This document shows positions 273 through 64,000 of a DNA stretch of 64,000 nt, one piece after another. The notes beneath the pieces were generated by a model. It searched no databases and was not told where the DNA came from. It worked only from the letters and a program-made list of their open reading frames with translations. Source of the stretch: a phage. The position numbers and the translations under genes were made by a program. Each line of letters starts with the position of its first letter. The stretch's first letter is position 1. The DNA is taken from assembly GCA_012813795.1 (NCBI GenBank), contig GCA_012813795.1_4087.1. One strand, given 5' to 3'.

Positions 273-2171
273 TTAAAAGAATATATCACGTAGTAAATGT
301 TCTATAACAGGTGCTGTCCAGCCATTACCAAGCATTTTGTACGCTTGTGTTGAACTACTAACTTTGAAGTAGTTTACATCAATTCCTTGCAACATGCAAC
401 ACTCTTGTACTGTTAAATGACGATAGTCCACATTTCGTTTACCCTTCTCAATCAGGAAGTTCCTGTTGATATCAGGGTCTTTGAAAACGATTTGTCTTCT
501 TGACTTATTGAAGTACTGATTCGGATCTCCACCCTTGAAGTAGTTTGCGTCAATGCAATATGATTTATCACGATCAGTATACCAATTACCAGTTAGTATA
601 TCTTGTAATTTTGGTGCTAAAATAAGAGGTTTTGGAATAAACAACTTATCCGAGCTATACCAGTAGTAACGTTGGCGATAATGTGCTGTATAATTTTGTG
701 AATTTATCAAAATTGGTGTCATTTCCAACACGCCATTGATATAATCCTTGAAATCTTCCTTCATCTTAACATTCTCAAAAAGAACTTTCAAGTTAGGATT
801 GAGACTTTTTATGTGCTGGTAAATATCAACCATTGTATGGAATAACATACCACGAGGATCATTCACACCGCCTTGTTTCCCAGCAACTGACCACGCTTGG
901 CAGTTATGAACTACAATATTGTTCGCCGTATATGTGTTATCTACTGCAACTTCAATATTGTAAACGGTTTTCCATTCTCCGGTTGTGGTGTTCGATTTAA
1001 CACCTTTTACCCATGAATATGACCCATCATCATAGAATGCTTCATCTTTTCGGTGCTTTTCTTTTTTGTATGTTAATACGTAATACGGCTTCTGATTAAC
1101 AACACGTTCTTCTATAACTTTTGTTTCAGACGGTTTAAAGTATGTTATGTTAGAATGACGACCATACACATTCATAATTAGTTGTTGTATACCAAGAATA
1201 ACATTCTTTGATGTTGATGTAAATTTTAAACAATCATCTTTCTTGTCATGGTGACCATCTGCGTCAAAATAACCATCAATGAATGCTTTCTGATTAGCGA
1301 TACTTTCAGTGAAAAGTGTGGGGTGTACTTGTTTATTTGAAGCACCCTTACCCATTTGTTCACAAAATTCAACTAGTTCTTTTGAACAAATATAGAATTT
1401 ATAAGATGTTCTTTCTTTAACAAAATTATATTTCATATTCATACCATCAAAACATGAAACCAATTCATCAAATTCATCATGAGCACAGCAAATAAAAACA
1501 CGATATTGATAACTATTTTTTCTATTTTGTCGTTTTACTTTGTAAGTCCATCCATCACCCATAAATCTACCCATGAAATACCAAAAGCTTTCACTCTTGT
1601 TATGTTGAAAATTCACATTACAACGAACATTACATATAGCATGTTCTTCTGTGAGTTCATGTGCATCGATCCATGTAGGTTCTGTATATTCACGAACATA
1701 TTGTCGTTTTTCATTATCCCACTTCTTGCTCATTTTTCTCGCATAAAATGGATGATTATCAGTGCATTCAATTGGTATATGTCCCTGACCTGTGATGATT
1801 CTTGTTGGTGCAATCTTGCTACCAATACTCAATACTTTTTGGTATTGTCCAGTGTGTGTAAGAACCATATCACCAATTTTTATATCTTTTATATCTTTAT
1901 GACCTTCATTTGTCATGATCATGGTTCCTGCTGGGAAGCAAGGAAAACCACCCATCAGAAGATCTATCTTGTCCCATTCGATATCCCATTCTTTCCATCT
2001 AGTTACATCACCCAATTGGATGATATCAGGAAAGTTAGCCTGGGATTCAGCTATAGCAAATTTATCAATTTCAGATGAGTAGTACTTTTCAACTGGTATT
2101 CCTGCACTTTGCAAGGCCATATACCCAACACTCATCCCATTGAATAGTGATAGTACACGTATCGGTTCCAT
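273..2171 (-). CDS. C5-cytosine DNA methyltransferase interrupted by an intein
   Basis: Motif I LSLFNGMSVGY; after intein removal GGFP-CQAWSVAG reconstitutes the PCQ catalytic motif; ENV motif, QECCMLQG and GNGWTAPV C-terminal motifs; exteins total 286 aa. Confidence 0.85.
   Translation of the reverse strand: MEPIRVLSLFNGMSVGYMALQSAGIPVEKYYSSEIDKFAIAESQANFPDIIQLGDVTRWKEWDIEWDKIDLLMGGFPCFPAGTMIMTNEGHKDIKDIKIGDMVLTHTGQYQKVLSIGSKIAPTRIITGQGHIPIECTDNHPFYARKMSKKWDNEKRQYVREYTEPTWIDAHELTEEHAICNVRCNVNFQHNKSESFWYFMGRFMGDGWTYKVKRQNRKNSYQYRVFICCAHDEFDELVSCFDGMNMKYNFVKERTSYKFYICSKELVEFCEQMGKGASNKQVHPTLFTESIANQKAFIDGYFDADGHHDKKDDCLKFTSTSKNVILGIQQLIMNVYGRHSNITYFKPSETKVIEERVVNQKPYYVLTYKKEKHRKDEAFYDDGSYSWVKGVKSNTTTGEWKTVYNIEVAVDNTYTANNIVVHNCQAWSVAGKQGGVNDPRGMLFHTMVDIYQHIKSLNPNLKVLFENVKMKEDFKDYINGVLEMTPILINSQNYTAHYRQRYYWYSSDKLFIPKPLILAPKLQDILTGNWYTDRDKSYCIDANYFKGGDPNQYFNKSRRQIVFKDPDINRNFLIEKGKRNVDYRHLTVQECCMLQGIDVNYFKVSSSTQAYKMLGNGWTAPVIEHLLRDIFF
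903..1940 (-). mobile_element. intein (346 aa) with LAGLIDADG homing-endonuclease domain
   Basis: Starts CFPAGTMIMT (block A), TDNH block B, two LAGLIDADG-like motifs FMGRFMGDGW and AFIDGYFDADGH, ends VVHN followed by +1 Cys. Confidence 0.75.
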
Positions 2172-2192
2172 CTATAATCCTTTATAAAATAA

Positions 2193-2220
2193 AATACTGG
2201 ACGAATATTCGCCCAGTATT
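2193..2220. promoter_or_regulatory. 26-bp near-perfect inverted repeat in methyltransferase leader (operator or terminator hairpin)
   Basis: atactggacgaatattcgcccagtat, two mismatches from a perfect palindrome; followed on minus strand by T-rich run and AAAGGA SD of the MTase gene. Confidence 0.45.
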
Positions 2221-2370
2221 GTCCTTTTTAATACTATTTAAAACTTATGTGGATTTCTCTTTTTAAGACCATCCAGTACATCAGTAGGTAGAATTTCACG
2301 GAATGACCCCACTGGGATAAGGATCATTACATATTTCAATTGGAGTTTCCTCGTTGTATAAGATTGATTA

Positions 2371-2399
2371 ATTGTATAATATTATTGCTCCATTGTCAA
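2371..2399 (-). promoter_or_regulatory. sigma70-like promoter TTGACA-N17-TACAAT
   Basis: Minus strand -35 TTGACA (2394-2399), 17-nt spacer, -10 TACAAT (2371-2376); about 200 nt upstream of MTase start. Confidence 0.4.
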
Positions 2400-2457
2400 G
2401 CAAAATATAATTCCTTATACATTCTTTCTCTCTGATACAAACATTATATCTCCTAAT

Positions 2458-2748
2458 TTAGAAATCGTCAATACTTTTTTCTTGACACCATCGGGCAGTA
2501 CAGATGATTGCCGATGCAAGGATTGAAGCACTAGCACGACCACCGCCTAATATGTACTGACTGACCACACCAATCATATTGAACACTTTATCACTCTCGG
2601 ACAGTTGTTCAAAATCCTTTTTCCAAAATTCATATTCTTCGTCTGAAACTTCAAATTCACTACCCATATCATTTAAAATCTTTTTTAGTACTGCACTATG
2701 TTCACTCATCTTTATCACCATAACGTTCGTCGTAGTAATCATCATCAC
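2458..2748 (-). CDS. hypothetical protein
   Basis: ORF track; start uncertain (no clear SD). Confidence 0.4.
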   Translation of the reverse strand: MMMITTTNVMVIKMSEHSAVLKKILNDMGSEFEVSDEEYEFWKKDFEQLSESDKVFNMIGVVSQYILGGGRASASILASAIICTARWCQEKSIDDF

Positions 2749-3050: not shown

Positions 3051-3473
3051 TTACCCTTTCAATTGTTTCTCGATATGGAATGTATTGTATATCTTGTTGT
3101 ACACAGTGTCAATAATTTTCTTAACGTCTGCTAACTCTTCGACAGTTGTGCACACATCACTGATAGTACTTAACTGAAACAACTCTTCTTCAGTACTGTA
3201 CAGTGTTATATCAAATTTGTTGCGAAGTTCATCTTCGATAACGTATTGATTTGTGACAGTATATGATGCAATTTCAACATCCAACAACTTATCACCTTCA
3301 AAAACATTATAAATGAACACAAATGTTAGTTCTTCACTCTCATCATCACTGTAGCTTATATATACATTGTAATTTTCACCATGAAAATCAAGATTGTGCT
3401 CAAACCTATTATCAGGTACTAGTGAATCTATAGGCATTCCCTTTAACAAATCAAAACAATCTCTTGGGTTCAT
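3051..3473 (-). CDS. EEx-FQ-SL paralog family member 1
   Basis: C-terminal TEEELFQLSTI motif shared with six neighbouring ORFs. Confidence 0.6.
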   Translation of the reverse strand: MNPRDCFDLLKGMPIDSLVPDNRFEHNLDFHGENYNVYISYSDDESEELTFVFIYNVFEGDKLLDVEIASYTVTNQYVIEDELRNKFDITLYSTEEELFQLSTISDVCTTVEELADVKKIIDTVYNKIYNTFHIEKQLKG

Positions 3474-3910
3474 TTTACATCCATTTGTCGCTGTTCATCA
3501 ATAAAAAAGATGTTAAAGATAGCTGAACGCATTTTTGTTAGCGTACTCATGAGATATTTTAAATCCTTGAAATCAATATTAAATGTTTGAACCAGTGATT
3601 CCTGGAAATACCCCTCTTCAGTAGTGCATTCACTTACATTTTGTACCTGATATATTTTGATAATATTATCATCACGAAGCATAATTTCTAAGTTATTGTT
3701 ATTAACATTGTGCACGATATACATCTGATCACCATATACCAGATTATTAACTGATAATGATAATACATTATTTTCAATAATAATCTTAAAGCAATTCTGA
3801 CCTACGTATGTGGTATTTTTAATTTGTTCTTCAGGATCAGTCAAACCATCGTTGATAAATTTAATTTTATTAAAAGTACTGATATATTTTTTAACTAATT
3901 TAATGTTCAT
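3470..3910 (-). CDS. EEx-FQ-SL paralog family member 2
   Basis: TTEEGYFQESLV motif. Confidence 0.6.
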   Translation of the reverse strand: MNIKLVKKYISTFNKIKFINDGLTDPEEQIKNTTYVGQNCFKIIIENNVLSLSVNNLVYGDQMYIVHNVNNNNLEIMLRDDNIIKIYQVQNVSECTTEEGYFQESLVQTFNIDFKDLKYLMSTLTKMRSAIFNIFFIDEQRQMDVK

Positions 3911-4287
3911 TGCTTTACCTTAGATAGAGCATAATTCATTATTGACTTGATTTTTTGTAAATTGTCATATGACATTACATGTTTTTCAATTAATGATAGT
4001 TGAAATAATTCTTCTTCAGTTGAATTCAAGTAAACTTCTGAACCATCATAATTTTCAAAATCATAAAGGTATGAAAGACGGTCATCTATATACCAACCAA
4101 TCCATTCAATGGTGTTTCTTTCTTTGAAAACACAAGTATATGGATTATCTCTTGAATCTAAGGTTATGGTTAAACGTAAACATGAATTTGATTGTTGTAC
4201 ACTCTGTCTCCCATAATATACAGTAACCTCATCGGTTTCAATTGATTTATACAAAGCATCAATTTTTCTATCCAATTCATCTACCAT
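3907..4287 (-). CDS. EEx-FQ-SL paralog family member 3
   Basis: STEEELFQLSLI motif. Confidence 0.6.
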   Translation of the reverse strand: MVDELDRKIDALYKSIETDEVTVYYGRQSVQQSNSCLRLTITLDSRDNPYTCVFKERNTIEWIGWYIDDRLSYLYDFENYDGSEVYLNSTEEELFQLSLIEKHVMSYDNLQKIKSIMNYALSKVKQ

Positions 4288-4691
4288 AATCTTACCCTTT
4301 TCAATGCTTTAACTTCGTCAGTGCACGGGAACACAACGAATCCAGTTAATGTTAGACCATCAAAATGGTTGAATCCATAATCATGAATCTTAGTTGCAGT
4401 GAATCCTTCAGCTTTCACTTTATCGAATAGATTAAGCATCTGTTCTTCAGATTTAGCCTTTAAGATAATCTTGCGGCGACCGTCCTGTACCCAAGTACTG
4501 AAATCGTTCAGGATCTTTTCATCTTCATCTCTTGGGTTCTCACCAACAGCATTACAACCACGAATTGATGTACCAGCAACTGTAACCGTGGACCAGATAG
4601 AATCAACCGCATGACCCGCCTGAGCAGCAAGCTTCCCAACTGGCATATCTAAGTCTTCACGAATGATTATGTAACATTTACTTACTGTCAT
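4281..4691 (-). CDS. peptidyl-tRNA hydrolase, Pth2 family
   Basis: YIIIREDLDMPVGKLAAQAGHAV resembles the Pth2 core (vvRtDLkMgkGKiaAQcsHAav); C-terminal pattern also similar; AAAGGAG SD. Confidence 0.75.
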   Translation of the reverse strand: MTVSKCYIIIREDLDMPVGKLAAQAGHAVDSIWSTVTVAGTSIRGCNAVGENPRDEDEKILNDFSTWVQDGRRKIILKAKSEEQMLNLFDKVKAEGFTATKIHDYGFNHFDGLTLTGFVVFPCTDEVKALKRVRLW

Positions 4692-5103
4692 CTACAATCT
4701 CCTTTTCATATTGCTCAAGTATCGAATAGATCTTATTGGAAATGTCCAATGTTTTAACATAATCACAGTACCTGATACACCCAAAATCATACAAAGTACT
4801 AACCATAAAGAATTCTTCTTCAGAGTACTTCTTTTCATTGAATGTAATGGTATTTGTAATTTTTCCAGATTCTGAATATTTTACATAGATAATACTACCA
4901 TTACTTATGTAATCTAATGTCTCTGAATACTTTTCAATACTAGAACTATGTCTAAATTGAATTCCTACAGATTTATCATACCAAAGAGATTTATTTCCGT
5001 CAGTAAGTATAGCATAATCAATCTTACGTTTATCATTGACACACATACCACAATCGGTAATTTTTAGTTTAGTGATATCAATATTCAACAGATCACTTAT
5101 CAT
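4678..5103 (-). CDS. EEx-FQ-SL paralog family member 4 (divergent)
   Basis: SEEEFFMVSTL variant of motif. Confidence 0.55.
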   Translation of the reverse strand: MISDLLNIDITKLKITDCGMCVNDKRKIDYAILTDGNKSLWYDKSVGIQFRHSSSIEKYSETLDYISNGSIIYVKYSESGKITNTITFNEKKYSEEEFFMVSTLYDFGCIRYCDYVKTLDISNKIYSILEQYEKEIVDDSK

Positions 5104-5527
5104 CCAATTCTCCGAATTTGGTTAGAGCAAACACTTTTGCCTCATCATGCAGTTTGTGAATTAGTATGATATTATCATATGTTAAATCTAGTACATTGTC
5201 AACAAGTGAACGTTGAAATAGTATCTCTTCAGATGTGATTTCATGGATGTTTTCTATCTTAATTTCATTGAATGTATCAGTTTCATTTTCTCGCGTACTC
5301 ATGATCAACGTACCACTCGTTGAAATGTATGATATCTTGGTATCCACACCATCAATGGTTGCGTACAGGCGAATTATTTCATATGAATCAGTTAATCTTA
5401 CATTAACCTTAATTTCATCCTCTGTACAAAACCACACACTTTTAGCAAAGAAATTGACACGTACTTTCATATCTTTAAGTTTATTATTTTGGAAATATTT
5501 TAGTACTTTTTTGAATGATATAATCAT
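5093..5527 (-). CDS. EEx-FQ-SL paralog family member 5
   Basis: TSEEILFQRSLV motif. Confidence 0.6.
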   Translation of the reverse strand: MIISFKKVLKYFQNNKLKDMKVRVNFFAKSVWFCTEDEIKVNVRLTDSYEIIRLYATIDGVDTKISYISTSGTLIMSTRENETDTFNEIKIENIHEITSEEILFQRSLVDNVLDLTYDNIILIHKLHDEAKVFALTKFGELDDK

Positions 5528-5544
5528 ATGTATCTCCTTTAGTA

Positions 5545-5940
5545 CTATATCGCATAGTACTTAAATAATGTTTTTAGATCATCAATAGTGAATGGTAAAT
5601 CCTCCAAAAGCAACTGTTGAAAGTAATGCTCTTCGTCAAGATACTTATGTATATTGATGAATGATTTTCTATGATAATCCGCTTTCCATGTAGGTCTTGT
5701 ACCCTTAGTATATTCAGTGAATACAATTTTGTCCATACCATAATCATACACGAATTCATTCTTTTCTGCAACCCCCTGATACTTTAGTTTTACCGGTTCT
5801 TTGCTGATAGAAAATTTATGCTCAGATGATTCATAATAGAATGATGATTGCTGATATTTTGATAAATCAATCTTTGAAAAATCATTTAGATAATAAGAAA
5901 GTTTAATTGTGACGATGCTGCCTATTCGACGACCCAACAT
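5545..5940 (-). CDS. EEx-FQ-SL paralog family member 6
   Basis: DEEHYFQQLLL motif; AGGA SD. Confidence 0.6.
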   Translation of the reverse strand: MLGRRIGSIVTIKLSYYLNDFSKIDLSKYQQSSFYYESSEHKFSISKEPVKLKYQGVAEKNEFVYDYGMDKIVFTEYTKGTRPTWKADYHRKSFINIHKYLDEEHYFQQLLLEDLPFTIDDLKTLFKYYAI

Positions 5941-20688: not shown

Positions 20689-21231
20689 TTACCATTTCAG
20701 AAATTCGTTCACATCGAGATCATACTTCAATGAGTCAACCATATGCAAACCAATCAGAAACAGACAATATGAGGCTACAGAACTACCACGCCCTAAGCCC
20801 CAGAAGATGTTGTGCTCTTCCATATAATCTACCAACCATATCATACAACGCAATAGCTTTGTCATATTATATTGTTCGTATAAATCAATTTCGTATTCCA
20901 CACGCTGTTTTGCTTCAGGTGTGGAACACTTTTGTAAAAAGAATTCTCTTAGATTGATATTGTCATACATTGGATCATAACGCCATAACTCATGATTACT
21001 ATCATGGTCAATTGTATAATCCAACATACGTTGCTCTAGTCCAAATTTTTTACAGTTATCGTTAAACTTCAAACGCTCTTGTTCATCTATATCTTGTAAT
21101 TGTAAGTACTGAATATCTGAACCACAATTCATAGCATAAACTACAGCATTTAAATTACATTTAACATCACCATTGGGACTTATATATCTGTTTCCTTGAA
21201 CTTTCATTTGTCTTTTTACTATCCTCTTCAT
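20689..21231 (-). CDS. hypothetical protein with DnaE-like GxGRGS segment
   Basis: WGLGRGSSVASYCLFLIGLHMVD resembles Pol III alpha GPGRGSAAGSLVAY region; start uncertain. Confidence 0.4.
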   Translation of the reverse strand: MKRIVKRQMKVQGNRYISPNGDVKCNLNAVVYAMNCGSDIQYLQLQDIDEQERLKFNDNCKKFGLEQRMLDYTIDHDSNHELWRYDPMYDNINLREFFLQKCSTPEAKQRVEYEIDLYEQYNMTKLLRCMIWLVDYMEEHNIFWGLGRGSSVASYCLFLIGLHMVDSLKYDLDVNEFLKW

Positions 21232-21475
21232 CTGATAGATAAGAATTCATATCAAAAATACATGGATCAGCTTCCTCGTATGTATCTTTCTCTTTTCTAC
21301 CTTGTCGTAAAGTCATTTCTTCATAGCACTGATTCAGTACTATCTGCATGTTACCAATGATAGAATCACTCATACCAGCGGCACGAGCGGAACTAATACG
21401 TAAACTTTGATCATTAATCTTTTGTTGGAGTTCTTTATCACTCATACCAGAAGGGTCATAAAATGGATTAAACAT
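21167..21475 (-). CDS. hypothetical protein
   Basis: ORF track; overlaps next gene. Confidence 0.4.
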   Translation of the reverse strand: MFNPFYDPSGMSDKELQQKINDQSLRISSARAAGMSDSIIGNMQIVLNQCYEEMTLRQGRKEKDTYEEADPCIFDMNSYLSDEEDSKKTNESSRKQIYKSQW

Positions 21476-21487
21476 ATTTTTCTCCTA

Positions 21488-23875
21488 TTATATTATGTCA
21501 TTCTGTAAAGCAATTCTAAATGTATCATGTACATAACGTTCATGGTCCTGTGCAAAGTATCCAAATTCAACAGCAGTTACTTCGAATTCAGTACTAACCA
21601 TAGAACTATGCTCATTGTTTTGTAACAACATTTGGAAAAATGCTTCACCCTTACCAGGCAAACAGTATGCTACTGGAATGATAGGCATGAATTTCTTCTC
21701 AATACCATCTTCGATATATGGATGGTTCATGAAGCGTGGAACTGTGTCAATCATCTCATCACTTATGCCTGGTATAGCATCCACATATAGACCACGATTG
21801 ACTAAATCAGTTGGGTCTTTAACCAAGTTTGTTGTATCTTCACCAACAGCCTTATAGATGTTTTGGCGTAAACCAAACAACTCAGCAAGTAAACCATTAT
21901 CTACATTAGTGTAAATTCGAGGGTTGGTGGATACTACAACTTGTGTTCCTTCTGGATGAAGTTCTCTAAACACCAAATCATACAGAAGATTCCCTTTGTT
22001 GTCAAGTGCTGACATGATTTTATAATTACCAATAACCATCTTGAATTTACCATTGGGAATAGTAGCCCCTGATGGATCTATAATATTCTCACGGAGAACT
22101 TTTTTCAAATCACTTAAGTTGGTGTAATTATAGTTCTGATTTACAAAGTTTTCTTTCAATAGAATTCTAGGAACTTTCTGTAACCCATATCTATCATCAG
22201 ATTGACGATGGAATCCAAAATTAGCAAATGTTTGAGTACTGATGCATTTAAACCAATCACGCTCAAACTGTACCGATGGTACAATATGTGAACTCAAATG
22301 ATTTTGTCCCAACCCACGAACGATTTTTAATTTGAAATCACCAATAACACTACTACCCTCGGTGTCATACACTTCAACCTTGAAATTCAATTTTATATCA
22401 TCATTGGCACTAAAATCAGTACTTAATGCATATGCAGTTCCTACAAGATAACCGTCAGGGGTAAGGTCCAATCCATATTTAGTTATATCATCACCACCTG
22501 CCAATACACAAGATACTTGATTCTTACTATTAGTGAGTATTCGTGGGTATACCGTATGTCCGAAATATTCACCAACATGGATGGTTCCCAAGTCTGGATC
22601 GGTGATTATCTGTATAGATGAACCTTCTGCGGCGTTTTCCAAAAATCGGAACATACGTTTCTCACCAATAATACCACTACCTAAAGATACGTCATAATAA
22701 CCTAAATCATTCCAATCTGAACTTTTGAATAATGGTTTTATCATACCTTCATCATATTCACCACTAATAACATATGGATAAACAACGTTATCCCTTAACT
22801 GGTATAAATGGTTAGGTTTGGGTTTTTCATCAGTTGCAGCAATAGTAGATACATCATTTGGACATACCCACATTTGATATGCTTTGAAACGTTGGTCGAT
22901 TGCAAAACGTTCAGCGAGTGTAATGTATGTTTTAAGAATATCTACAATTTCAATCTTAAAGTAAACATCCGTTGGTTCGGATTCATGTAAGAATGTTTGT
23001 AAGAATTGCCCATTAGGGTTAAAGGAAAGACCACTTTTTGTTATCTTCCCAGTGTCATCAACTATGTTAACTTTAACTTCTTTATTAATTCCATCAACTG
23101 GAAATGCTAAATCATCAGGGCGTAGGTAAGCTGCTTTACCTGTAACGTGTCTTGTTGGTAAATCCTGTTCAGTTATATCCAGTAGGCGATACGCTGGAAA
23201 GAACACACGAGGACTAGTATCGGTCGCACTATCTACATTTGGCTGGTATGGACGTTTACGACCGAAGCCTTGAATGAACAAAGTACTGTCAGAACCATAT
23301 TCAATATCACCAATGCAATATAATCGATCGTCATCTGTGATAGTTAATCCAGGGGTTACCCATATTTCTTTACTATCAAAAGTTACTGTTGCTTTGTTTG
23401 CACGCAACAAACCAGATGGTGAAATGTTCCCAAAATGCATAACATTAACTGCCTGTAAATTGAAAACAACACTCTCAACGTTGTTAAATGTACCATCACG
23501 CTTACAATGCAACTTTAGATAATAAACATCTTCACTGATTATAGTACTTGGAAGATAAAAATTATTCTTTTGTATTCTACACTTATGTCTTCCATTTAAA
23601 AACTGGTTTCCAGTGGTTCCGTCCGATAGTGGGACTAAATTTCGTGGGTCATTACCAACAAATAATGAATAATGGTTTTCAGCGTTAAAAACATTACCAA
23701 CATTATCTAAACATTGTATAGTGAAAATCATCTCTAAGTATTCGTTTTCACTTAGTGTATAGCTATCACCTGTAGTTCCTTCTTTATTGATACTTAATCT
23801 AATAAGAATGTCAGATCCTTCTTGAATATATTGAGTATCAGCCTTTAAATCCCAATACGGGGTAAAAGATGCCAT
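21488..23875 (-). CDS. large hypothetical protein, probably late/structural
   Basis: 795 aa, beta-rich composition; TATAAATA late-type box and GGAGAAA SD upstream. Confidence 0.6.
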   Translation of the reverse strand: MASFTPYWDLKADTQYIQEGSDILIRLSINKEGTTGDSYTLSENEYLEMIFTIQCLDNVGNVFNAENHYSLFVGNDPRNLVPLSDGTTGNQFLNGRHKCRIQKNNFYLPSTIISEDVYYLKLHCKRDGTFNNVESVVFNLQAVNVMHFGNISPSGLLRANKATVTFDSKEIWVTPGLTITDDDRLYCIGDIEYGSDSTLFIQGFGRKRPYQPNVDSATDTSPRVFFPAYRLLDITEQDLPTRHVTGKAAYLRPDDLAFPVDGINKEVKVNIVDDTGKITKSGLSFNPNGQFLQTFLHESEPTDVYFKIEIVDILKTYITLAERFAIDQRFKAYQMWVCPNDVSTIAATDEKPKPNHLYQLRDNVVYPYVISGEYDEGMIKPLFKSSDWNDLGYYDVSLGSGIIGEKRMFRFLENAAEGSSIQIITDPDLGTIHVGEYFGHTVYPRILTNSKNQVSCVLAGGDDITKYGLDLTPDGYLVGTAYALSTDFSANDDIKLNFKVEVYDTEGSSVIGDFKLKIVRGLGQNHLSSHIVPSVQFERDWFKCISTQTFANFGFHRQSDDRYGLQKVPRILLKENFVNQNYNYTNLSDLKKVLRENIIDPSGATIPNGKFKMVIGNYKIMSALDNKGNLLYDLVFRELHPEGTQVVVSTNPRIYTNVDNGLLAELFGLRQNIYKAVGEDTTNLVKDPTDLVNRGLYVDAIPGISDEMIDTVPRFMNHPYIEDGIEKKFMPIIPVAYCLPGKGEAFFQMLLQNNEHSSMVSTEFEVTAVEFGYFAQDHERYVHDTFRIALQNDII

Positions 23876-27878: not shown

Positions 27879-28733
27879 TTATTTAACAAGGAGTAATTGT
27901 AACTCAGCACTTGGGCTTGTCTCATCATCACTCCAATATTTGTGAACTTTTTCTGGTGTTGCCTTTGCTAAAACTTCACCACCACCAACAATGTACACTT
28001 GATGTGATCCAATTAGTCTAGTCCAAAATTTAATTGCATCATCAGTGTGTAAACTATCACTAAGTATAGCGTAGCCGTGCTTTAGCATATCCATAAAGAT
28101 AGTGTAAATGATACCTTTTGTGCCTGTTTTAGATGCAGTTGCTGCGATTTCGAAAACATTCTGAACACCTAGTACTGCATCATTAGAAGTATAACCACTA
28201 ACAATAGCTAGTTGTTTACCGCTCTTATCATATGCGATAAAACCAGTACCATTCTTATTCTGATAAACGTCATAATCATTGTGCTTAGCAAAGATTACCA
28301 TGTTATGCTTACCTGTCATTTCTGCTGTCTTATCTACAAACTCATCACGGTCTTGGCCCTGAAAACTATCAAAGCGTTGTGGCATTTCTTCCAACTTCTC
28401 AGTATTTTCATAGAAGTGATGTTCTTTATTTTGACAACACTGTTCACACTCACAATCATCTGCGTGTACATCCATTGTATCATCAATTTCAGGATTGTCC
28501 TGTGCAATTTCTGCATCTTGAATGATATCCACCCAACCTTTCATTGAAGATTCAGTAGTTTTCTTTTTAACGTGTTGGGGCAACTTCGCCCCCTTTTTAA
28601 GATTTCCAGCTTTTTCATCAGCATGATTCCATTCCTTAGCAGTATCTGTTGATACACCATGTGATTTTGCAATCTCTGGGTCATGTGCCATAGCAGCAAA
28701 TAGTCTTGCTTGACTCTTAGATTTAGATGGCAT
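27879..28733 (-). CDS. hypothetical protein with central Cys cluster
   Basis: DDCECEQCCQNKEHH cluster; basic N-terminus. Confidence 0.5.
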   Translation of the reverse strand: MPSKSKSQARLFAAMAHDPEIAKSHGVSTDTAKEWNHADEKAGNLKKGAKLPQHVKKKTTESSMKGWVDIIQDAEIAQDNPEIDDTMDVHADDCECEQCCQNKEHHFYENTEKLEEMPQRFDSFQGQDRDEFVDKTAEMTGKHNMVIFAKHNDYDVYQNKNGTGFIAYDKSGKQLAIVSGYTSNDAVLGVQNVFEIAATASKTGTKGIIYTIFMDMLKHGYAILSDSLHTDDAIKFWTRLIGSHQVYIVGGGEVLAKATPEKVHKYWSDDETSPSAELQLLLVK

Positions 28734-29658
28734 TTTTAATATCTCCTATTAAGTTCTCTAATATAGTTCGGTGATTTTGTTTATAATTTATTCGTATCAA
28801 ATTGATATTGTTAATATTACAAAAATTAGTTTTTATCAAATCACGTTTTTTAATATTAATCAATTCGTCAACACCACCCCAATGTTCCTTTTCGACGTAA
28901 TGCTGTTCACCATCATATTCTATACATATATTATAATCTGGTAAATAAAAATCAAAAGGTAATGGGTTTATATTCTTACAATCATCAAACTTATATTCTG
29001 TTATGTATTTAATTTTATTAATAGTGAGTATGTGACTAATATCTTGAACAGCTTTGGATATTTTATTATTACATAAGGAACAACCTTTTCCAGCTTGATG
29101 GTCAGAAAGTCTTTGGAAATAATAACCATGATTTGGGCAACCAATTTCAACAATATCATTCATATATTCATAATCTAATTTAGAATAATCATACTTATTA
29201 TTATGTATAAAATTACATTTATTAATAACTTTTTCTTTAGATTTTTTTCTTTTATTACCAATTACCACATTAGCACATTTTTTACATCCCTTCCCATCCA
29301 AATGAGAATTAACGGTTTGATAAAACATACCATGATTTTCACATGGACAAAATATTTTGATGGTTGTGGAATGTGATATTTTTTCGCAATATTCATATAT
29401 ATACTTATTGTTATGTATAACATTTGAACGTTCTATAAATTTATCATATGTTAATTTCGCATTACCTGAACACTCTGGACAACCGCCACCATTTCTATGA
29501 TAATAAGCATCTTGTACAAATTCACCATGAAAAGGACATATTATAATTATATTTGATTTTATTTTTATCAAATCAGTTTGAGTGTAATCATAAAAGAAAT
29601 TATGTTTTAAATGACATGAAATTATATATTCTTTCAATGTTATTTTAGGTCGCCCCAT
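28723..29658 (-). CDS. putative endonuclease: three zinc-ribbon repeats plus Vsr/DUF559-like PD-(D/E)xK domain
   Basis: Three copies of NNKY...CP.HG.F...H..GKGC..C; C-terminal FDFYLPDYNICIEYDGEQHY. Confidence 0.5.
   Translation of the reverse strand: MGRPKITLKEYIISCHLKHNFFYDYTQTDLIKIKSNIIIICPFHGEFVQDAYYHRNGGGCPECSGNAKLTYDKFIERSNVIHNNKYIYEYCEKISHSTTIKIFCPCENHGMFYQTVNSHLDGKGCKKCANVVIGNKRKKSKEKVINKCNFIHNNKYDYSKLDYEYMNDIVEIGCPNHGYYFQRLSDHQAGKGCSLCNNKISKAVQDISHILTINKIKYITEYKFDDCKNINPLPFDFYLPDYNICIEYDGEQHYVEKEHWGGVDELINIKKRDLIKTNFCNINNINLIRINYKQNHRTILENLIGDIKNAI

Positions 29659-60394: not shown

Positions 60395-64000
<3,606 letters not shown>

Follow-up and report, generated by a model that had tools for sequence, protein, structure and literature searches.

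Genes and features of the gap

The DNA analysed here is a stretch of 64,000 nt (64 kb; hereafter the window) from a phage in which the minus strand carries nearly all of the genes, including every gene close to the gap that is the subject of this study. The first 6 kb of the window are 99.4% identical to Escherichia phage A4 (ON286972.1), an Asteriusvirus with a genome of 355,528 bp whose host is E. coli LF82. Across the full 64 kb the identity is ~98% and one segment of ~710 nt is missing from A4, which makes the window a near relative of A4 and not A4 itself. The studied gap separates A4_119 (2458-2745) from A4_120 (273-2171), the gene of a C5 cytosine methyltransferase, and at 286 nt it is the largest intergenic gap of the window. 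The methyltransferase protein contains Pfam PF00145 together with Hint/LAGLIDADG domains. Among the neighbouring proteins there was no Pfam match to a DNA-binding family, and no regulator gene lies nearby. The features of the gap and of its borders, in the order in which they are transcribed, are as follows.

2443..2471, minus strand: promoter-like site P1, TTGACG-N17-TATAAT, 11/12 consensus matches, overlapping the stop codon of A4_119
2401..2420, minus strand: left junction zone GTATAAGGAATTATATTTTG, a diverged copy of the methyltransferase Shine-Dalgarno (SD)/leader region (alignment A1)
2371..2399, minus strand: promoter-like site P2, TTGACA-N17-TACAAT, 11/12 consensus matches, inside the insertion
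2349..2352, minus strand: candidate SD of the small ORF, GAGG, 9 nt ahead of the TTG start
2238..2339, minus strand: small ORF MKYVMILIPVGSFREILPTDVLDGLKKRNPHKF, 33 codons, TTG start (2339), stop codon TAA (2240-2238), unannotated in A4
2193..2220, minus strand: putative terminator stem-loop, 12 pairs (5 G-C, 1 G.U, 6 A-U), loop AUAU, -16.2 kcal/mol
2185..2192, minus strand: T-tract TTATTTTA, which together with the last stem bases reads TATTTTATTTTA
2169..2188, minus strand: right junction zone, TTATAAAGGATTATAG + ATG, with the working SD and start codon of the methyltransferase
2183-2178, minus strand: methyltransferase SD AAAGGA, with the ATG start codon at 2171
273..2171, minus strand: C5 DNA cytosine methyltransferase gene A4_120, 632 aa, with intein (A4 annotation)

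Two promoter-like sites

A sequence-only reading of this DNA had given the methyltransferase gene a promoter of its own at P2, ~200 nt before the ATG. The site is indeed there: a -35 hexamer TTGACA (2399-2394) and a -10 hexamer TACAAT (2376-2371) stand on the minus strand with a 17-nt spacer between them, and the end of the -10 lies 200 nt from the methyltransferase ATG. With hexamers near consensus and a spacing within 16-18 nt, a sigma70-type promoter at 2399-2371 is plausible, and transcription from it is predicted to start near 2364. What had been overlooked is P1, which is equal to P2 in quality and lies 72 nt further upstream.

A single loose promoter match is at chance level in AT-rich DNA of 35% G+C (47 found against 43.8 expected). 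The stricter class is distributed differently, with 17 sites of at least 11/12 matches on the coding strand of the window and 2 on the opposite strand. Seven of these 17 fall in intergenic DNA, which makes up ~5% of the window, and many of them place the -10 hexamer 37-70 nt ahead of a start codon. The strand bias of this class is well supported, and sites of this quality appear to behave as a real signal class in this genome. A distance of 32 nt separates the end of the P2 -10 from the TTG that starts the small ORF, which is close to the usual geometry of the strong sites. Neither an extended consensus nor a conserved repeat of ~100 nt was seen among the 17 promoter regions of the window. On the minus strand, no promoter-like site of at least 10/12 matches was found from the hairpin up to the point where the next gene begins, and past the hairpin strong sites are next seen in tandem, close to where the following gene ends (L001 965-937, 912-884). 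A phage sigma factor, proposed to act with the host RNA polymerase, has been reported in an Asteriusvirus genome paper (PMC11895373).

An insertion specific to the A4 lineage

In the relatives slurp01, UE-S1, ph0011 and TH47, the methyltransferase ATG follows the stop codon of the upstream gene after 52 nt, and a counterpart of P1, TTGGAA/TTGGGA-N17-TATAAT, stands 39 nt before that ATG. The slurp01 junction, used as a query, was recovered as an uninterrupted single piece in 36 other Asteriusvirus records, and A4 alone splits it into two pieces that span 515 nt instead of 281. Alignment A1 places the additional DNA as a block of 233 nt after the -10 of P1 and ahead of the methyltransferase SD. 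The comparison shows this 233-nt insertion to be specific to the phage A4 lineage, and it identifies P1, not P2, as the ancestral, conserved promoter-like site of the methyltransferase. The assignment of P2 to the methyltransferase does not survive the finding that 36 relatives share the upstream site, and what had been taken for a long leader is A4-lineage DNA with its own SD and gene-like ORF, so that the promoter and the hairpin bracket a separate small unit rather than delimit a leader.

The insertion is flanked by two diverged copies of an SD region, GTATAAGGAATTATATTTTG (2420-2401) and TTATAAAGGATTATAGATG (2188-2170), both of which resemble the leader of the relatives; in alignment A1 the left copy aligns to the relatives' ...ATAAAAAGGATTTTATATG. 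The two copies are identical at 12 of 14 positions, a score also reached by 9% of randomly chosen segment pairs with equal spacing, and for this reason the flanking repeat is only suggestive of recombination. We rejected it, as a repeat of the target-site-duplication kind, as proof of a mechanism on the same 9% chance level. The base composition of the insert is ordinary for the phage rather than foreign: G+C is 31.3% in the insert, 35.3% in the ORF and 34.9% in the window, and among 233-nt windows the insert ranks at the 17th percentile.

Searches for relatives of the insert returned the A4 lineage only. By blastn in a distant mode against 50,697 phage records it was found in A4 and nowhere else, and blastn against 5,426 complete E. 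coli genomes gave no match. The peptide of the small ORF, searched by tblastn against phages at E <= 10, again returned A4 only; it had no match in Pfam or PHROGs, and a look-up of the exact product found it not on record. Two codon-degenerate patterns, which between them took in both halves of the ORF, had no occurrence in JGI metagenome contigs, 185,579 GTDB genomes and viral contigs, and the exact hairpin pattern had none in IMG/VR. Rfam 15 gave no match in the window at gathering score, the best sub-threshold hits having E-values of 1.9 and 3.9 and lying far below the gathering scores. A tRNA/tmRNA scan was negative, and when the insert was compared by BLAST with the remainder of the window, only its own hairpin arms were returned.

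The same 286-nt gap is present in Logan assemblies from independent runs, which together give three A4-lineage haplotypes, namely the window (SRR2034070), A4 (SRR18825480) and a third (ERR7425836). Three sites in the gap vary among them, all within the small ORF: two changes, Ile6Leu and Arg14His, are non-synonymous, and the one at Ile8 is synonymous. This gives no sign of purifying selection on the protein among only three haplotypes. Neither of the two promoters varies, nor do the SD regions or the hairpin, in a sample whose size does not permit conclusions about selection. Between the window and ERR7425836 the gap is 0.70% diverged, close to the 0.88% of the upstream genes. Across the haplotypes A4_119 is 2.8% diverged and the methyltransferase body 8-14%. 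The ERR7425836 phage carries the cassette in front of an intein-free methyltransferase of 286 aa, which means that cassette and intein are independent; its 8-14% diverged methyltransferase body begins at a breakpoint about 25 nt past the ATG, which indicates that the methyltransferase allele was exchanged right beside the cassette.

The hairpin and its T-tract

In minus-strand RNA the hairpin (2220-2193) reads AATACTGGGCGA-AUAU-UCGUCCAGUAUU; the plus-strand text of the palindrome at 2194-2219 is atactggacgaatattcgcccagtat. It is followed in the 3' direction by TTTTATTTT, then by AAAGGA and the ATG, and the U-rich tract UUUUAUUUU begins within the last stem pairs. The palindrome had been correctly placed next to the T-run and AAAGGA, and it is part of the 12-pair stem 2220-2193. 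The two mismatches ascribed to it, though, are one non-Watson-Crick position counted twice. This lone imperfect position is a G.U wobble in the minus-strand RNA and a C.A mismatch in the plus-strand RNA, and the stem energies are -16.8 and -12.8 kcal/mol, respectively.

Stems of at least 12 pairs with at least 5 G-C pairs are expected 0.2 times per shuffled 64-kb window and occurred in 0 of 3000 shuffles of the 286-nt gap; the hairpin is clearly non-random. Among the terminator-like structures on the coding strand of the window it ranks as tied 4th-5th strongest, and hairpins of this kind at dG <= -12 number 16 on the coding strand against 7 on the other strand. Eight GC-rich stems of at least 11 pairs on the coding strand, the studied hairpin included, are followed by T-rich tails, which places it in an ordinary class in this genome.

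Folding of the leader RNA had been proposed as a check on a possible regulatory structure. It returned the hairpin in the minimum free energy (MFE) and centroid folds of every transcript model but no alternative antiterminator fold: forbidding either arm costs 12-14 kcal/mol, and the best folds without the terminator contain no antiterminator helix. The hairpin, 17 nt past the stop codon of the small ORF, has every feature by which an intrinsic terminator is recognised in a sequence (stem-loop, U-tract, strand and position). We infer that the hairpin and T-run terminate transcription, as a constitutive intrinsic terminator that would be neither a switch nor a mask over the ribosome binding site. 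As in known intrinsic terminators of bacteria and phages, a G-C-containing stem-loop with a U-rich tract directly after it lies in intergenic DNA on the coding strand behind a stop codon, and it is one of about 16 such structures on this strand of the window. It differs from them in that the U-tract is interrupted by an A and in that the hairpin directly precedes a gene without a promoter of its own. That an intact methyltransferase gene comes right after a strong putative terminator is uncommon in this genome and mildly unexpected, and given this odd position the hairpin could be leaky or have another role.

Other hairpins of the window precede or overlap promoters. One at 15881-15854 is followed by a promoter at 15840-15812, and in another, at 13436-13399, the promoter -10 sits in the hairpin loop.

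The 33-codon ORF

The spacing between SD and start codon peaks at 7-10 nt in 86 A4 genes, and the 9 nt between GAGG and the TTG of the small ORF are within this mode. The codon-usage log-likelihood of the ORF (6.36) is comparable to that of real gene segments of the phage (7.47 +/- 3.48), and of the spurious open frames, all 162 off-frame ones in sense orientation and 98.5% of the 593 antisense ones have a lower codon score. On the other hand, none of the 86 annotated A4 genes in the window starts with TTG, 20% of shuffles contain an ORF as long as this one, and the small ORF was called by none of the gene callers. The small ORF looks like an orphan gene-like unit that would be translated from its own SD, and it is possible that the A4 annotation lacks a 33-codon early gene here.

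A self-contained transcription unit as the preferred reading

We read the 286-nt gap, with a probability of roughly 0.65, as the ancestral 52-nt leader with P1 into which the A4 lineage has received a 233-nt self-contained mini transcription unit. The unit would be composed of an early sigma70 promoter (P2, 2399-2371), an SD, the ORF (2339-2238) and a Rho-independent terminator (2220-2185), and the order and spacing of these parts are those of a complete small transcription unit, from promoter and SD through start and stop codon to terminator. The layout of the inserted cassette is well supported. Early in infection, host RNA polymerase with sigma70 would start at both P1 and P2, the mini-gene would be transcribed from P2 as an RNA of ~180 nt, most polymerases would stop at the hairpin (2185-2192) and a fraction of them would read through into the methyltransferase. 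Since no promoter-like site (at least 10/12) follows the hairpin, the methyltransferase and the next gene (A4_121) would depend on read-through if the hairpin terminates efficiently, and because of this dependence the insertion probably lowers the expression of both genes in the A4 lineage compared with the relatives. With an efficient terminator, a lower output of C5 methyltransferase is to be expected from A4-lineage phages than from their relatives.

The best reading of the whole feature is that of an ordinary moron-like early cassette, in a lineage-specific example. It does not challenge current understanding, small-gene gain by such cassettes being common in phages, and its main value is for annotation, in that the conserved methyltransferase promoter would be the upstream P1 and the palindrome a terminator. 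The locus also offers a clean, datable case of a jumbo phage gaining a tiny orphan transcription unit at a gene boundary. A more far-reaching idea, which we regard as quite improbable, is that the cassette is an acquired throttle that down-tunes or re-times the methyltransferase and the next gene while a basic microprotein of 33 aa or an RNA of ~180 nt is expressed early; if true, a lytic jumbo phage would have rewired an anti-restriction gene through the insertion of a mini-cassette.

Competing explanations

The nearest competitor keeps the inserted unit and changes its product. The interval from P2 to the terminator encloses about 180 nt and might yield a small non-coding RNA in which the 33-codon ORF is incidental. 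The lack of TTG starts among the annotated genes, the frequency of ORFs of this length in shuffles, the failure of gene callers to call the ORF and the two non-synonymous changes among its three polymorphisms would all suit such an RNA. They are offset by a codon usage in the ORF frame that is typical of real genes and above nearly all spurious frames, and by a GAGG at the right distance from the TTG. The RNA as a whole does not fold unusually (z = -1.76, driven mostly by the terminator) and has no Rfam match. We consider a non-coding product unlikely, though with a real chance of being right. The same data on polymorphism, which show no constraint, can be turned against the unit itself: the 233 nt could be non-functional debris of illegitimate recombination, in the form of the end and the terminator of a foreign gene, with the promoter match due to chance and nothing in use. 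The insert is an orphan without relatives in the collections searched, single promoter-like matches are common in AT-rich DNA, and a gene fragment would also give gene-like codon usage. Debris would hardly be expected to hold an 11/12 promoter, an SD, a start codon, a stop codon and a terminator in the right order and at the right spacing for a complete unit. The promoters, hairpin and SD regions are moreover invariant in the three haplotypes, where the gap (0.70%) is about as diverged as the upstream genes (0.88%) in a sample too small to establish constraint, and the hairpin with its T-run would terminate whatever its origin. This explanation seems to us decidedly unlikely.

The remaining two explanations go back to the sequence-only reading, which had offered for the palindrome an operator, a transcriptional attenuator or a structure occluding the ribosome binding site. 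In the regulated-leader version P2 is the promoter of the methyltransferase and the hairpin a conditional attenuator, for instance one controlled by a leader peptide, or a mask over the ribosome site. It draws strength from the fact that the methyltransferase has no promoter past the hairpin, so that its expression must cross it, and from a predicted P2 read-through RNA in which the methyltransferase SD pairs with AUGAUCCUU in the small ORF (P(unpaired) ~0.06). Yet the segment is missing from 36 relatives that have the same gene behind P1 with a 39-nt leader, and there is no antiterminator alternative to a hairpin whose loss costs 12-14 kcal/mol. The ORF stop codon lies 17 nt before the stem, so that a ribosome terminating there would leave the stem intact. 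The hairpin is also clear of the SD: its stem ends at 2193, 9 nt before AAAGGA, and thus leaves the ribosome site uncovered. The SD occlusion predicted in the read-through RNA is equalled by 6% of shuffles, and ERR7425836 has C in place of A at one partner base, 2324, and no change that would compensate for it; on these two grounds sequestration of the SD by AUGAUCCUU was rejected. Riboswitch-like or leader-peptide attenuation was rejected because no alternative fold exists. Of the three options the attenuator came nearest, in that the hairpin is of the terminator type and has a T-run, but its regulated character finds no counterpart in an antiterminator fold, and we hold a regulated leader to be very doubtful. 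An operator bound by a dimeric regulator, of the kind known from C-protein control of restriction-modification methyltransferases, is suggested by the near-perfect inverted repeat of 26-28 bp beside a methyltransferase gene. This repeat lies ~150 nt downstream of both promoters and not over them, and it is missing from the 36 relatives with the same methyltransferase. A T-run directly follows it, as T-rich tails follow the 8 GC-rich coding-strand stems of at least 11 pairs in the window, and its imperfect position is a G.U wobble on the coding strand only, an asymmetry that favours pairing in the coding-strand RNA. No regulator gene adjoins it, the neighbouring proteins match no DNA-binding family, and the 33-aa peptide is too short for the known folds of dimeric repressors. 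An operator is hardly credible here. The self-contained transcription unit is for us the reading to retain.

Comparison with known systems

A moron, in the concept of Hendrix and Juhala, is a supplementary gene that brings a promoter and a terminator of its own and sits between two genes which are direct neighbours in related phages (PMC3594210). At the level of sequence the A4-lineage cassette conforms to this description, with additional DNA where 36 relatives have the two genes side by side, a promoter of sigma70 type and a terminator of its own, and an orphan cargo. It departs from it in the size of the cargo, only 33 codons, and in a base composition that is the same as that of the host genome. 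The unit is also oriented like its neighbours, and its terminator would cut off the downstream gene instead of insulating it. As the phage is a lytic jumbo phage and not a prophage, the rationale of morons as genes expressed from a repressed prophage is inapplicable.

In T4-type phages, cassettes of promoter and stem-loop (PeSL, promoter-early stem-loop) flank orphan ORFs, and their crossovers have been mapped to the stretch that runs from the -10 to the SD or ATG (PMC2839356). The strong sigma70-like early promoters and terminator stem-loops that occur there with orphan ORFs among small early genes (PMC2839356, PMC4122927) have their likeness at this locus. The interval in which PeSL crossovers take place is also the interval of the studied insertion, flanked by the SD-region copies (12/14; equalled by 9% of random pairs). 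In a PeSL, by contrast, stem-loop and promoter form one compact intergenic motif, so that every PeSL gene keeps a promoter after the stem-loop. The stem-loop studied here lies ~150 nt past P2 with an ORF in between and no promoter after it, the window has no conserved promoter repeat of ~100 nt, and the phage is an Asteriusvirus and not T4-type. Because the compact promoter/stem-loop arrangement is absent, the cassette is not a PeSL.

Like the leader-peptide attenuators of the trp and pyrBI type, the locus has a structural gene that is preceded by a short ORF and, after this ORF, by a hairpin of the terminator kind. It is set apart from them by the lack of antiterminator pairing and of regulatory codon runs, by the 17 nt between stop codon and stem, and by an arrangement that is not conserved with the methyltransferase, being missing in the 36 relatives. 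C-protein/operator control differs as well, since here no helix-turn-helix controller gene adjoins and the palindrome does not overlap a promoter.

Composites that do resemble a PeSL occur elsewhere in the window, at 13436-13399 and 15881-15812.

Methyltransferase allele, intein and putative homing endonuclease

Two coding features on the minus strand of the window vary within the lineage of Escherichia phage A4:
273-2171, minus strand: C5 methyltransferase gene, interrupted by an intein at about 903-1940
28723-29658, minus strand: 311-aa open reading frame, containing a ~710-nt segment missing from A4

When the window (from about 2150 downward) was compared with L011 3075-3935, the sequence of the A4-lineage contig ERR7425836, the methyltransferase body was found to be 8-14% different, as against only 0.7-0.9% in the flanks, with the first differences appearing about 25 nt past the methyltransferase ATG. 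As judged from this comparison, the methyltransferase allele, with or without its intein, has been swapped through recombination immediately next to the cassette, the 233-nt A4-lineage insertion that directly precedes the gene. The intein comprises 346 aa with Hint and LAGLIDADG domains, and is carried by A4 and by its relatives TH47, UE-S1 and ph0011; the methyltransferases of slurp01 and ERR7425836 are without it. Its insertion point lies directly ahead of the catalytic cysteine in the P-C-Q motif of the C5 methyltransferase (GGFP|C...VVHN|CQAWS), and the same cysteine would therefore double as the intein +1 residue.

The second polymorphism is a stretch of about 710 nt (28849-29558) that the window has and A4 does not. 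Hits of the 311-aa open reading frame are to the homing/HNH endonuclease families phrog_559 (4e-59) and phrog_9084, and the locus has the look of a homing endonuclease gene, free-standing and polymorphic inside the A4 lineage.

Promoter-like sites and hairpins

Further promoter-like and hairpin elements are:
13436-13399, minus strand: promoter/stem-loop composite
15881-15812, minus strand: promoter/stem-loop composite
965-937 and 912-884 of the A4 sequence (L001), minus strand, just beyond window position 1: tandem promoter-like sites, each matching the consensus at 11/12 positions
61619-61583, minus strand, within the 176-nt gap 61460-61635: hairpin of 16 pairs with a 5-nt loop

Both composites, in combining a promoter with a stem-loop, are similar to the PeSL (promoter-early stem-loop) motifs of T4-type phages. 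The former has a perfect TTGACA-N17-TATAAT whose -10 falls within a hairpin loop; this hairpin has 11 pairs and is followed by ATTTTATT. The latter has a 12-pair terminator hairpin with TTGACA-N17-TAGAAT directly after it. The tandem sites, a further such pair besides the two ahead of the methyltransferase, are 53 nt apart within the 3′ end of the gene following the methyltransferase; tandem early promoters may be an arrangement that this phage uses repeatedly. The hairpin at 61619-61583 is the longest GC-containing hairpin of the 64-kb window; since it is followed on the coding strand by an A-run instead of a T-run, it does not have the appearance of a coding-strand terminator.

Probable unannotated gene and small proteins

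Two other minus-strand regions concern gene content:
21208-21488, minus strand: second-largest gap (281 nt) left as intergenic by the A4 annotation
3051-5940, minus strand: run of small hypothetical proteins of 126-146 aa

The gap holds an open reading frame (start ATGTTTAATCC near 21474, with AGGAGA ahead of it) that is probably a gene left out of the A4 annotation. The small proteins have in common an acidic EE(L/F)FQ-type motif (STEEELFQLS, TSEEILFQRS, SEEEFFMVS, EEHYFQQLL), phrog_36084, a PHROG of unknown function, is hit by two of them, and the run looks like a paralog family expanded in tandem.
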